Assembly: GCA_963675495.1 (NCBI GenBank)
Contig: OY776215.1
Span: 384,001-448,000 of the forward strand
DNA length: 64,000 bases
Origin: an uncultured Methanolobus sp.
GTDB taxonomy: Archaea > Halobacteriota > Methanosarcinia > Methanosarcinales > Methanosarcinaceae
Direction: 5' to 3'
Positions 17,963 to 24,909 of the stretch are shown here, piece by piece (the stretch's first letter is position 1; the number at the start of each line of letters is the position of its first letter). The notes under the pieces are model-generated. The model was given only the letters and a program-made list of their open reading frames with translations, searched no databases and was not told where the DNA came from. The position numbers and the translations under genes are program-made.

Positions 17963-18476
17963 GACTGTATTCTTGATGTGTTTGGATTTGATAAAGATGT
18001 TATGTAAAGAGTTGATGGATTCAAATCTGAATCCTATAACTTTCAATTGGGGTAATAGGTAAGCCCAAAAAACCGAACTCCTATCACAATATTGTAATGT
18101 AGGTCTAAATAGATCTAATAAAAAACGGAAATAGTAATTATATTTATGTATATGTTGTTCTAATTAAAAAGTGATAGGAAAAAATATAACAAAGATTAAT
18201 CAAAAAAACATGTTTCTGTTTTATACCAACTCCTTGTTTTAATTAATAATGTACTGTTTATTAAAAAATTGTATCTGTATGTTTTAGAAAGAAATTTGTA
18301 AACATAAATTGATTAGAATTTATAAGCATATTATGCAAACTTGGTATTCATAAATGAAAAAATACAGGGGGAATATCTGGCCTTTTCTTCAAATGTGTGG
18401 GAAAAATACTATAAGTGTGAAAGATGTGGAAAAAGAAAAACCAAGATAATACCGAAATATCAGGCATGAATCTTGA

Positions 18477-18653
18477 TTATAATCTTAAAATTCTAAGAAT
18501 CTTATTTTTGATTTTGGTGAATAGACCTGCGTCTCTTTCTCTGACCGCTTGTGCATAGCTCTTCTGGATAAACTCGTCAACATCCATCTTTTGCTTATAA
18601 TCAATAGTACTTTTCGAATGTGTTTTTGTATAATCTCGATCGGCTAATCCCAT
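18477..18653 (-). CDS. Small hypothetical protein (58 aa, MGLADRDY N-terminus)
   Basis: My translation MGLADRDYTKTHSK...KILRILRL*; AGGAAG upstream; below the ORF-track cutoff. Confidence 0.5.
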   Translation of the reverse strand: MGLADRDYTKTHSKSTIDYKQKMDVDEFIQKSYAQAVRERDAGLFTKIKNKILRILRL

Positions 18654-18940
18654 TGTGTCTTACTTCCTAAAAAACCAATATGTAATTATAGTCTTTGAGA
18701 GTATTTTTTAATTTATTGTATATTTCATAAAAACATCTCTTGACTTAAACTGATTACAAACTCTTTTTCGTATCCAGTCTTTTCAATTGAAGGTAACAGA
18801 GATTCTTGGAATTAAGATTGATCCTAGAAAGGAGAACTTGGTTCAGGTACTTGTTGAAGAAAGACAAATGATCAAAAGTCAAGAGAAAAACAGAGCACAG
18901 GCTATTAAGATTCTAGTAAATTCAATGAGTTATGAGATTT

Positions 18941-19864
18941 TCATTGAACTGAATCCAGAGGATAAGAAAAGGGCTCTGTAGAAATCCTCATTTGAACAAT
19001 AAAAATAACCTTGACATACCTGTCAAGGTTATGGATTAATATCTTGAATTTGACTTCTTTCACTTGATTCCAATACTTTTTTGCCCTAACCGCTTCCCCA
19101 TATTTCCTTTTCAGAACGGAGAACATCGTTTCAACCAGGTTTCTGTTATGATACAATTCTTCATCAAATTCCCATACCATTTTTCTGCGATATTTCCCTT
19201 TAATTCTCTTCCTCTTTCTTTGTCTCAAAGGAATCATAGCTACCGCTTCTAGTTGTTCTCTTGTTAGCGAATGTATGTCCTCTGAATCATACCCTTTATC
19301 CATCACATAGTACTTTGATCTGCGATTTTTATGGCATTGCTTCAATAATTTCATTGCCTGCTTTGCATCATGCACAGGCTTACCTGATATCTTGAAACCA
19401 GTAATAATGAATTTTCCAGTATCGATGGAAATACTAGTTTTCAGAAAAGATCTACGTTTCTTTCCTGTTCTCCAGGAATAATAGTAGCTACAATGACCAC
19501 TCGAAAATCCACTTGAATCAATAGCTGTAACCTCTATCTTTTCTCCACGTGAATAAAATAGTTTTAGTGTTTGTTGAAGTAATCCATGAAAATAAACGGA
19601 TTTTATTCGAGCAACAAACTTTTGGAGTGTAGTGAAATGAGGAACTTGTTTTATTCCAATTCTTGATTTAATTTCATCCATTAATTCAATAAGTTCAACA
19701 ATATCTCTGTAATCTTCATCAAGGTATTCTTTTAATAAAACCAGTACCAATAGCTGATGTTGTGTGTACTTTCTTTTGGAATACTTGCAACTATATATCT
19801 GAAGATGTGAGTTTCCTGATACAGCTAACGCTGTATCAACAAACTTTAAGTACTTATTAGACAA
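18941..19864 (-). CDS. IS5-family DDE transposase
   Basis: [33 protein letters not shown]; the reading frame runs out through the TIR. Confidence 0.92.
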
Positions 19865-19973
19865 AACACAATCATCCCCTTTGTGTTTTCTTGTGGTAAG
19901 TAATACTTTGGGGAGTTATCCTTTTTAAATTATTATGCTAAAATAAAATTGAAAGTAGGTTTTCTACAGAGCC
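18972..19973 (-). mobile_element. IS5-family insertion sequence, about 1.0 kb (8-bp TSD suggests ISH1-like group)
   Basis: TIRs ggctctgtagaaatcct / ggctctgtagaaaacct (16/17); perfect 8-bp TSD aagaaaag at 18964-18971 and 19974-19981. Confidence 0.92.
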
Positions 19974-22828: not shown

Positions 22829-23041
22829 TCACATGAATGTTGTCAGTATTTTTGGAAAATCCATCTCTGAAAGCCACATACCCCACATCCAAATCGCCCC
22901 TATCAAAAAACTTATTGCTTTTCCTTTCAGCCCAAGCCTTTCATGAGTTACTCCCAATAATAAAAAGGTGGCTAAGACGTTGCTAATCATCAAAACCATG
23001 TTAATCTCTGTTTGAAATTCTACTATCATAAAGTTCACCAT
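22829..23041 (-). CDS. Small membrane protein
   Basis: Two hydrophobic segments in 70 aa. Confidence 0.45.
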   Translation of the reverse strand: MVNFMIVEFQTEINMVLMISNVLATFLLLGVTHERLGLKGKAISFLIGAIWMWGMWLSEMDFPKILTTFM

Positions 23042-23300
23042 TTTATGGTCTTAATACATAATATTTAAAAGTTGCTATTTGATTTTTTAAGGATTTCTTT
23101 TTTAGTATTATTATAAAGTGCCAATATACTTTGTTATAACAAAGTTCGGTTTTTTGGCGTTACCTATTACCCATAGCTGTCAATTGGGGTAATAGTAATA
23201 ACCAAAAAACGCAACGCAAATTAAACAGCATAGTCAATTTTTCAAAATTACAAGAAATTAACAAACTGAAAAAAGTAAAAAAAAAAGAAATGTTTGTGGT

Positions 23301-24563
23301 TTATTGACCGAATTGTCCACCACAATGAGGGCAAAACTTTGGAGTTTGTGGAAGATTTAGCTCAACTCCACAATAAGGGCACATCTTAAAAGATTGTGGT
23401 TGGCTTGGTGTCCCAACATTACCCTTAATCATCCCTACGTCTTTGATCTGTGTAGAGTTATCTGAGTGAAAAGTAGTTTCATGCCCATACCCAAAAAACA
23501 CATTACCATTTACATGAATTGCATTATGATGTCTATTCAAATTTTGGTCTTCTGGAATTTTAGAGTCATCATGCCTTTGCTCTTTATGCACTCTAGGTTT
23601 TGGTTTATTTGTGAAAGCTTTTGAGTGGTTAGGAGTCTCAACGTTATCGTTAATCCTCCCTTTACCTGAGTTGGCTTCTGTTTTCACATTATTTTTCGGA
23701 GTGTTTTCAGAGATTGCTGAAGTAAAAACATGTTCTAACATCGAGGATACTGCAGTCTGGTTAAGCGTCTCAACATTATCGTTAATCCTCCCTTTACCCA
23801 AATCTGCTTCTGCTTTCACATTAGTTTTCAGAGTGTTTTCAGAGTAAGCGCTAAGATCTATATTTGAATCTAGAATTTTAAAAGAATTATTAATGTTTTC
23901 GACTACTTTTTTCCCAGTTATTGCCGAATTATATATCTGTTCTAATCTACTTTCTTCATAGAGTAAGAACCCGAATTCACAATCAAACCACTTTGTTTTG
24001 TTAATGCCATGATTATTATATTTTATTTTCCACGCCTTCCTTGTTCCAAAAAAAGTATCGATTGTTTCTGTTCCAAGTACACTATACTCAAATCCAAAAC
24101 CTTTCTTTAATCCCAATCCATTGCATTCCGTACATTCTACTTTTCCAGAACCGTTGCAGAAAATACATTCTTGATTTGTCCAACTACCTGTCCCTTTACA
24201 ATGGTCACATACTTTAGACCCATAGCTACATTCTGGACAGTGCTGGTATTTCCAAGAAATTGGAAAATTTAAAATGTCTGATTTCATTACTTTGTCTTCT
24301 TGATTTAAATCCATTAAAGATAAGAAAGTAGCCCCATCATTACTAATATTATCCAAATCCGGCCCAATTACAGATTTTCCATCAATGTCAATGTCAATTT
24401 TCATAGCATGGGACGCACTTGCTACTCTAAAAGAAACTGAATTTATAGTTCTCCTAATAATTTCTAATTTATGATCAGAAGTACCATACTCACTGTCTTT
24501 AAATTTATAAATAATATAATTTCCTTCCTGCATCCAATCCAGATTTGGTATCATTTTGTCCAC
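23301..24563 (-). CDS. Protein with DnaJ-like CxxCxGxG zinc finger, internal duplication and C-terminal zinc ribbon
   Basis: CDHCKGTG, CIFCNGSG, CTECNGLG; duplicated SENTxKxNVKxEA...GKGRINDNVET; CPYC...CPHCG. Confidence 0.75.
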   Translation of the reverse strand: MDKMIPNLDWMQEGNYIIYKFKDSEYGTSDHKLEIIRRTINSVSFRVASASHAMKIDIDIDGKSVIGPDLDNISNDGATFLSLMDLNQEDKVMKSDILNFPISWKYQHCPECSYGSKVCDHCKGTGSWTNQECIFCNGSGKVECTECNGLGLKKGFGFEYSVLGTETIDTFFGTRKAWKIKYNNHGINKTKWFDCEFGFLLYEESRLEQIYNSAITGKKVVENINNSFKILDSNIDLSAYSENTLKTNVKAEADLGKGRINDNVETLNQTAVSSMLEHVFTSAISENTPKNNVKTEANSGKGRINDNVETPNHSKAFTNKPKPRVHKEQRHDDSKIPEDQNLNRHHNAIHVNGNVFFGYGHETTFHSDNSTQIKDVGMIKGNVGTPSQPQSFKMCPYCGVELNLPQTPKFCPHCGGQFGQ

Positions 24564-24660
24564 CTATAATAAATTAAGTAACAGATTTATAAGTAATTAT
24601 GTAGGATTTTTTAAGTTTTAAATGTTCTCTTTTAAAATCAAATAAGAAGAAAGGTATGTG

Positions 24661-24909
24661 TCAAAATCCACTTACTAATTTCCTCACCTCTTTTGTCCAG
24701 AAATTGAACCCCTTATCACTCAAAATCCTGTCCTTCATCCTCTTCAAAGAACTTCTTTGCATCACTCCATATTCCCTTGCTTCCTTTGGAGTCAGAGCCA
24801 TTATTTGCTGTTTGATACCTTCCTCATCAATGAAAGTCTGAGCTCGCTGAAGCTCTAATTCCTCTTCATCAATGTTGTTGGTTTCCTTTCCGATATAAAG
24901 GATAGTATC
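24661..24909 (-). pseudogene. 3' fragment of a second casposon-type PolB
   Basis: My translation DTILYIGKETNNIDEEELELQRAQTF...EAREYGV...EVRKLVSGF* aligns with DTIEIGKEANNIDEQSLGVKKAQEF...EAKELGV...AVRRLM* of 20700-21077. Confidence 0.85.

Follow-up and report, generated by a model that had tools for sequence, protein, structure and literature searches.

Two casposon relics upstream of sfsA in an uncultured Methanolobus: a probable tandem array at a single target that resembles tRNA-Leu

The window analysed here comprises 64,000 nucleotides of the genome of an uncultured Methanolobus sp. (GCA_963675495.1, contig OY776215.1, positions 384,001 to 448,000 of the forward strand), which is available as a single contig of 2.87 Mb with 40.5% GC and is rated 100% complete. 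Between the host gene sfsA and a gene encoding a 234-aa protein, this window carries two sets of casposon remnants: element 1 (18050-23172), with an interior of about 5.1 kb between its terminal inverted repeats (TIRs), and element 2 (23187-~24918), reduced to one end, an open reading frame (ORF) with a zinc ribbon and the last 85 codons of PolB. The GC content is 26-37% over 18000-25000 versus 41-49% on the flanks (32.5% for element 1, 33.9% for element 2 and 40.1% for the window). In relatives, the two host genes are adjacent, with a spacer of about 100-150 bp in G004, G009 and G012 and a longer one in others (G000 is the studied genome, the labels G001-G043 designate congeneric genomes and the L labels loci or elements taken from relatives). 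We interpret the insert, with a probability of about 0.85, as two decayed family-2 casposons arrayed in tandem at a single site-specific target, which lies 74 bp upstream of sfsA, and we are highly confident that the two relics stem from two integrations. The coordinates of all features are collected in Table 1.

The TIRs of element 1, detected by an inverted-repeat search of the window, are 30 nt long and 93% complementary (28/30); allowing up to 3 mismatches, the window contains the 30-mer at just these two places, for 0.00 expected from 100 shuffles. End types were named A, B and D by their sequence, A being the type of element 1 and B that of element 2. Over the 29 nt of the end pattern described below, the left TIR does not differ from one of the ends of the intact element L043, and the 33-nt stretch 23140-23172 is 100% identical by blastn to one end of another such element, L046. 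The two A-type variants (…GTAAGCCC… and …GTAACGCC…) are, over the same 29 nt, the very pair that bounds L043, and the mismatches between the TIRs are therefore native to the subfamily and not a product of decay. One copy of a 14-mer adjoins each TIR, and the two copies, which constitute the target-site duplication (TSD), agree at 12 of 14 positions. Such a 14-mer, with up to 2 mismatches, has six matches in the window, where about 2 would be expected from 128 kb of both strands; since this count alone is unremarkable, the weight rests on the copies abutting the outer base of each TIR, and the chance of a 14-mer abutting both TIRs on the correct strand is about 1e-5. The direct repeat was also found as a longer match spanning 18033-18078 and 23170-23215.

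Inside these ends, element 1 keeps two pieces of a PolB pseudogene separated by an insertion sequence (IS). Neither the PolB fragments nor most of the cargo ORFs could be assigned to a Pfam family, and the PolB pieces were therefore identified by blastx against the elements of relatives: piece b (19974-21074) is 90% identical to the PolB of L046, 89% to that of L043 and 88% to that of L054, all of them elements with A-type ends. It contains one in-frame stop codon (20574-20576, after ...DGKP). Nothing is left in element 1 of PolB upstream of residue 447, and the whole casposase side, which in intact relatives covers about 5 kb (the remaining part of PolB, Cas1 and a further two conserved ORFs), is gone.

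The end of element 2 (GGGTAATAGTAATAACC...) begins directly after the second 14-mer. Over 29 nt (23187-23215) it is 76% complementary to the right TIR of element 1 (23144-23172), with 14 nt between the arms. The PolB remnant of element 2 was 82% identical by blastx to the PolBs of L047 and L045 and 81% to that of L048, three elements with B-type ends, and 37-46% identical to the other nine PolBs; at this remnant the element is truncated and joined directly to the host flank. Compared with the PolB C-terminus of element 1, it is only 44% identical (tblastn match 24673-24909, minus strand), and the same C-terminal piece of element 1 also matched further copies elsewhere in the genome. As TIR type and PolB type agree within each element, the two elements represent two subfamilies. 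Their PolB 3' ends converge on the common 14-mer: that of element 1 is distal, and that of element 2 proximal, to a leader motif situated on the sfsA side. A preliminary description, made from the letters of the window, had already reported the 28/30 TIRs and the 12/14 flanking repeat, a third, related end directly after the second repeat copy, a second PolB 3' remnant on the opposite strand and the opposite orientations of the two elements. All of these are present, the ends, repeats and second remnant taken together are far beyond chance, and the casposon end which it placed at 24909 lies less than 10 bp from the actual break. Its assignment of the locus to casposons was equally sound, the two PolBs being 88-90% and 82% identical to those of intact elements with the same ends, 14-bp TSDs and Cas1.

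These intact elements came from a search across the genus with one degenerate pattern of 29 nt built from the ends, run on 36 genomes including G000. The pattern matches 30 of the 36 genomes, often as inverted pairs 5-10 kb apart, and a reversed-pattern control gave 0 matches. Thirteen TIR-bounded pairs of 5-10 kb were picked by hand from the matches and then retrieved. Their flanking 14-mers are identical in nine cases, differ at one position in two and at two positions in one, and are unmatched in the last (L051); 11 of the 13 carry a PolB-sized large ORF together with an ORF of 366-401 aa. Both of the Cas1-sized ORFs that were tested (2/2) belong to Pfam Cas1 PF01867 (E 2.7e-70 for L046 and 4.7e-67 for L047), and the large ORFs of the same two elements fall in PolB families (PF03175 or PF00136). 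The Cas1 of L046 aligns end to end (residues 1-398, E 5e-194) with PDB 6opm, an entry listed just as Cas1 and which we take to be the Methanosarcina mazei casposase studied by Hickman 2020. Intact related elements measure 8-10 kb, and those retrieved beside tRNA-Leu are seen in both orientations. Among named records, those whose PolB segment is 93% identical are from Methanolobus, and Methanolobus vulcani and Methanococcoides are among those with 68-70%. Segments of casposon-type PolB with about 70% identity to that of the window also occur on two short contigs (L058 and L060, of 2.2 and 4.3 kb, from metagenome-assembled genomes labelled Woesearchaeota and Bacteroidota), probably mis-binned methanogen contigs. 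The D-type end, GGGATATATACAAGGCGAAAAAAGTGTACGC, flanks many arrays of the genus (L013, L032, L052, L053, L038, L065, L104 and others).

The site at which both elements sit has a recognizable architecture. The motif TCAAATC (within TTCAAATC, 18020-18027) is separated from the leader-proximal 14-mer by an 8-nt spacer, TGAATCCT (18028-18035). The same motif was mapped 8 bp upstream of the TSD as the leader motif of the Aciduliprofundum boonei casposase (Beguin 2019, PMC6614799), and integration by the M. mazei enzyme was abolished by mutating the upstream base pairs 12-17 (Hickman 2020, PMC6977970), a region which the TCAAATC of the window overlaps. Casposons of the genus canonically target tRNA-Leu at its 3' end, where the TSD begins with CGCA and the T-loop TTC[AG]AAT lies at -16 to -10. 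Because the leader motif lies in the same register, the sfsA-upstream site appears as a mimic of this tRNA-Leu target. The preliminary description had spoken of a non-tRNA target: this stands insofar as there is no tRNA gene, and has to be corrected insofar as the site imitates one. ARAGORN found no tRNA in the window and Rfam gave no hit at E up to 1 in 17000-26000, which led us to reject the presence at the site of a concealed tRNA or of another known RNA. A decayed 3' half of tRNA-Leu is not convincing either, since 17 of 33 positions match tRNA-Leu(TAA) by eye and only 11 of 26 outside the box. We also rejected a TSD read on the opposite strand (CAATTG...) with the leader on the element 2 side, since the in-register T-loop-like box lies on the sfsA side, and this genus-wide.

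Orthologous sites in relatives give access to the order of events. The leader plus 14-mer was matched in 5 of the 35 other genomes of the genus (6/36 with G000), and in all five (G003, G040, G033, G001 and G041) the 14-mer is single. In G003, G040 and G033 a B-type end follows directly after it, degraded in the case of G033. G041 has one 14-mer (ATCATGTTCAATTG) followed by DNA that is not a TIR, with the flank gene about 590 bp further on, and is an empty site. G001 was considered as an empty site and rejected, since its 14-mer is followed by AGGATATATACGACGTGTAAAAAGTGTACAC, and about 25 of the first 31 positions match the D-type end by eye: it presents a degraded end of a D-like type and then a nitrilase-family gene. 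This carbon-nitrogen hydrolase (nitrilase-like) gene of G001 (L002/L111), recognized by eye in translation, stands where the window has its two relics. The PolB 3' remnant of G003 breaks no more than about 10-15 bp from the break in the window and is joined to the same flank gene; a terminator-like stretch kept in G001 and G008 is missing in both G000 and G003. The repeated integration claimed in the preliminary description is thus supported, and the empty site with a single 14-mer that it expected among relatives was found.

With a B-type end alone in three relatives and an empty site in one, element 2 would have come first, and element 1 later into the leader-proximal 14-mer; we regard this order as probable. 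According to this scenario, a B-type casposon would have integrated at the 14-bp target located 8 bp downstream of TCAAATC, in an ancestor common to several sister species, and would then have been truncated until one TIR, its cargo and the last 85 PolB codons remained. In this lineage only, an A-type casposon (end GGGTAATAGGTAA...) would have entered the same leader-proximal 14-mer, duplicating it and moving the old relic off the leader. Its PolB would have been directed away from the leader on entry, so that the PolB 3' ends came to face each other. Element 1 would subsequently have lost its casposase side through a deletion of about 5 kb and gained an IS in PolB and a stop codon. A casposase that is now absent presumably recognized the site, to judge from its letters, by way of the leader motif.

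Several observations weigh against this interpretation. Neither element encodes a casposase, and the assignment to casposons therefore relies on homology with elements that are intact in relatives. The first bases of the TSD are ATAA/ATAG instead of CGCA, which is invariant in M. mazei, and the TIR variant found at the PolB 3' end of element 1 (ACGCC) sits on the casposase side in L043 and L046, although it matches L054. The leader motif is degraded at the orthologous sites (GGCAAATC in G003, GTGCAAATC in G001 and GTTCGAGTC in G040), and may not have been intact when the B element integrated. Finally, G001 is the closest relative (about 87% in syntenic genes versus 83-86% for G003) and has no B relic, so that a single ancestral insertion requires loss or replacement in G001, and the cargo between TIR and PolB remnant shows no detectable similarity between the window and G003, which would fit independent B insertions or later cargo replacement as well as one old insertion. 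These last two points speak for an alternative that we consider unlikely: a reversed order, A first and B later into the distal 14-mer, or independent B-type hits in this lineage and in G003, G040 and G033, repeated independent hits being plausible at a specific target. Against it stand the three other species with a B-type end alone right after the leader-proximal 14-mer, the PolB remnants of the window and G003, which are cut no more than about 10-15 bp apart and joined to the same flank gene, both without the terminator-like segment, and the much more advanced decay of element 2 relative to element 1. In addition, the leader motif is expected to steer new copies to the leader-proximal 14-mer.

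It is very improbable that a single element was rearranged, with an inversion, or a recombination of casposon copies from other parts of the genome, producing the tail-to-tail layout. Several other casposon relics in the genome would have been available for recombination, TIR-TIR inversion was raised as a possibility by Krupovic 2016 (PMC4779613), and the TIR variant at the PolB 3' end does differ from L043 and L046; however, the TIRs and PolB C-termini belong to different subfamilies, and the 14-mer that is single in relatives bounds element 1 as a 12/14 duplication. Moreover, ends back to back and 13-15 bp apart were seen in regions retrieved from five other genomes (G009, G002, G036, G001 and G043), and 36 of 101 ends in the genus are flanked by another end; as back-to-back ends are common, such a layout is a normal product of repeated integration. 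That the locus is a relic of another PolB-carrying element (pipolin, virus or plasmid) with chance terminal repeats could be argued from the missing casposase and from PolB fragments without a Pfam family, but is effectively refuted by the 88-90% identity to PolBs that lie beside Cas1 within elements bounded by TIRs and TSDs, by the 0 chance matches expected for the TIRs and by the silence of the reversed control pattern in 36 genomes.

Tandem casposons that have both decayed are thus the reading we retain, and the decay extends to the whole genome. The preliminary description had proposed that the casposase was lost: Pfam PF01867 (Cas1) has no match in the window or in the complete genome, and tblastn with the ORFs of relatives recovered just three C-terminal fragments of Cas1, 34-107 aa long, all outside the window. 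A genome scan for Cas1 and other TIR copies, suggested along with that claim, therefore ended with no Cas1 and with further relic ends. The window holds relics, and not autonomous members, of family-2 casposons, and with no intact copy in the genome the casposon family is extinct there. Judged from its sequence, the locus displays TIRs, a TSD of about 14 bp, the TCAAATC leader and PolB (the latter as pseudogene fragments only, recognized by pairwise identity to the PolBs of relatives); it lacks a casposase and a CGCA target. Both elements are presumably immobile now, and element 1, whose ends match an intact relative over 29 nt, could in principle be moved by a casposase provided in trans. At least seven further relic loci are present in G000:C1, in the form of ends and of crumbs of the Cas1 C-terminus and PolB 3' part, and three of them adjoin tRNA-Leu genes (TAA, CAA and TAG).

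A census of the genus gave a broader view of the target. It comprised 101 distinct ends found by the degenerate pattern with at most 1 mismatch, a setting which misses D-type ends and undercounts ends. Tandem junctions, where an end is flanked by another casposon end, account for 36 of them (the box was not scored there). Another 15 are flanked by tRNA-Leu: 13 have the exact box in register, and 13/13 have a CGCA TSD. Among the remaining 50, the box is exact and in register in 20, present at 5/7 or better in 14, shifted by 1-3 nt in 4 and absent in 12, at least 3 of which are distal flanks (L043-, L047- and L024-), for a background frequency of the box of 2.5e-4 per position. The automatic classes are imperfect, L086 being ambiguous and L036 and L108 looking TIR-flanked yet counted as "other", and orthologous sites in different genomes are not independent, and we therefore give no exact probability. 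Of the 34 non-tRNA sites in register, 8 start with CGCA and 31 have A at position 4; the ATAA of the window fits this looser rule. Several further landing sites outside tRNA genes were each seen in two or three genomes, with leaders that are nearly identical (L041, L075 and L031; L109, L022 and L068; L103 and L076), for example TTTGGTTC[AG]AATCTGAATGCC|AGCA..., a recurrence that points to a limited number of conserved pseudo-tRNA-Leu sites across the genus.

From this pattern we tentatively propose, at somewhat less than even odds, that casposases of the genus pick their sites mainly by a T-loop-like leader box (TTC[AG]AAT at -16 to -10) and a fixed ruler, the first three bases of the TSD being almost free; that the sfsA-upstream site would be a long-lived pseudo-tRNA-Leu landing pad, hit by A, B and D-like types across a clade of species; and that arrays would grow on the leader side, as CRISPR arrays do. 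If this is true, nature has in effect carried out a mutational scan of casposase target specificity in the approximately 34 non-tRNA sites. A literature search did not find a link between casposons and the T-loop, although the genus-wide pattern may still be published.

The closest known systems are the family-2 casposons of M. mazei (MetMaz-C1 and the tRNA-Leu copies; PMC4779613, PMC6977970). The likeness covers the 14-bp TSD, TIRs of about 30 nt with a transferred strand ending ...CCC-3', the combination of PolB with a Cas1 bearing a C-terminal extension (here in the intact relatives), the tRNA-Leu 3' end as canonical target of the genus, with a CGCA TSD, and the existence of intergenic targets, remnants and both orientations. 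The end of the transferred strand is 5'-TATATCCC in M. mazei, TATTACCC in the A and B types of the window and again TATATCCC in relic E3 and the D-type. The window copies differ in having no casposase, PolB fragments only, an ATAA/ATAG TSD and another host genus. The CGCA is invariant among the TSDs of M. mazei, where integration in vitro was almost abolished when it was mutated (PMC4779613, PMC6977970). For A. boonei (PMC6614799), TCAAATC also lies 8 bp upstream of the TSD, whose distal part tolerates change; it was a tRNA-Pro site from that distantly related archaeon that served for the mapping in vitro, whereas here the motif is read from the natural sequence of an intergenic site.

Tandem arrays, intergenic and tRNA-Leu targets, both orientations and remnants have all been published for Methanosarcina (Krupovic 2016, PMC4779613), and so have tandem formation in vivo (PMC10359463) and the single-TSD excision of MetMaz-C1. 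Since both orientations occur in relatives and in M. mazei, opposite orientations within one array are unremarkable. The tandem casposons of Methanosarcina sp. 2.H.T.1A.3 and 2.H.A.1B.4 likewise share one common TSD, with one or both members inactivated and one array in an intergenic position (Krupovic 2016, PMC4779613), but the members in the window belong to different TIR and PolB subfamilies and are both dead. The pair in the window converges tail to tail. A further parallel is leader-proximal spacer acquisition by CRISPR systems (general knowledge, discussed in PMC6977970), where the newer insert also lies by the leader and the older one distally, with one repeat-sized duplication per event. 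The difference is that the inserts of the window are kilobase-sized transposons and not spacers, and that neither Cas2 nor a CRISPR array is involved.

The locus is therefore an ordinary case of a kind already described in related methanogens, and what is new is a mixed-subfamily, convergent and fully dead array at a site without CGCA and with a known leader motif. Taken alone it is an entry in a graveyard: two presumably immobile relics in a genome without any casposase. Its value is comparative, as the locus, its five orthologous sites and the 101 ends from 36 genomes constitute natural evidence for a leader motif that had been mapped in vitro. They would also indicate that the CGCA rule of M. 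mazei is relaxed in this genus, and the order of arrival, older distal and newer on the leader side, would be as expected if casposon integration is ancestral to CRISPR spacer acquisition. The current understanding is unchanged; cases and a testable definition of the target are added to it.

Table 1. Features of the sfsA-upstream locus (positions in the window) and of other casposon relics in the same genome (positions on G000:C1)
Feature	Position	Strand	Basis or remark
sfsA, flanking host gene	17198..17962	-	Pfam SfsA E 1.6e-45, SfsA_N E 2.8e-21
Leader motif TCAAATC	18021..18027	+	sequence read
TSD, leader-proximal copy, ATAACTTTCAATTG	18036..18049	+	sequence read
Element 1 left TIR, A-type, GGGTAATAGGTAAGCCC...	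18050..18079	+	repeat search
AT-rich filler, 705 bp, 27% GC, without ORF	18080..18784	.	no similarity in searches
PolB pseudogene piece a, residues ~447-511	18785..18971	+	blastx 84-85% to L046 and L054 PolB (match 18784-18978); blastn 91% to L046
IS, 1002 bp, within PolB	18972..19973	-	Pfam DDE_Tnp_1 E 9.7e-21; ends from alignments
PolB pseudogene piece b, residues ~507-873, with YMDTDS	19974..21077	+	90% over 367 aa to L046 PolB
Cargo, 381-aa TPR protein, intact ORF	21159..22304	-	Pfam TPR_1 E 6e-73
Cargo, 65-aa zinc-ribbon-like protein (Zn65)	22600..22797	-	ORF list
Cargo, 70-aa hydrophobic protein (mem70)	22829..23041	-	ORF list
Element 1 right TIR, A-type, GGGTAATAGGTAACGCC...	23143..23172	-	repeat search
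TSD, second copy, ATAGCTGTCAATTG, common to both elements	23173..23186	+	sequence read
Element 2 TIR, B-type, GGGTAATAGTAATAACCAAAAAACGCAACG	23187..23216	+	same end type at orthologous site of G003, G040, G033
Element 2 cargo, 420 aa, CxxC clusters, C-terminal double zinc ribbon (Zn420)	23301..24563	-	DZR E 0.005, below cut-off
Element 2 PolB 3' remnant, last 85 codons	24664..24918	-	82% to L047 and L045 PolB residues ~801-885
Host flank gene, 234 aa, without Pfam family	24936..25640	-	neighbours sfsA in relatives
Cas1 crumb	C1: 132614-132934
Further relic locus	C1: 158938
Degraded D-type end beside tRNA-Leu(TAA), with Cas1 and PolB crumbs	C1: 317366-320723
End beside tRNA-Leu(CAA), with PolB crumb	C1: 787135-789540
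Perfect D-type end near Cas1 crumb	C1: 1143066		locus 1141661-1143066
Truncated end after tRNA-Leu(TAG)	C1: 2340016 onward
B-type end, TTCGAAT in register before it	C1: 2648835-2648863		PolB crumb at 2647063-2647215

Among the host genes, the sfsA ORF as called covers 17198-18046. Its true start is probably at 17962, 74 bp from the insertion site, the SfsA proteins of relatives aligning from residue 1 of the resulting 254-aa version. The regions 18080-18784, 21078-23142 and 23216-24663 have no DNA match in the genome (bar internal repeats) or in the retrieved loci, and no paralogs of the cargo proteins Zn65, mem70 and Zn420 were found there either. Repeats occur within the cargo itself: the TPR gene carries 102-nt periodic repeats, and the 420-aa ORF of element 2 contains an 87-nt direct repeat (23626-23712 and 23758-23844, 87% identical, 132 nt apart) encoding a repeated peptide segment. 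The IS in the PolB of element 1 has inverted ends GGCTCTGTAGAAA and is flanked by an 8-bp duplication, AAGAAAAG, at 18964-71 and 19974-81; its transposase ORF, running from 19864 to 18941, extends 31 nt past the IS end before reaching a stop codon. A related IS copy (87-89%) is located at G000:C1:646926-647977, and IS-related sequence was seen in or beside casposons at loci L052 and L014. Further along the window, a stretch of low GC (about 29%) at 27900-29500 contains a gene for a FilR1-family regulator (PF08350, E 6e-23) and its tandem paralog, and relatives of this FilR1 type are found at more than 10 places in the genome and beside casposons in relatives.

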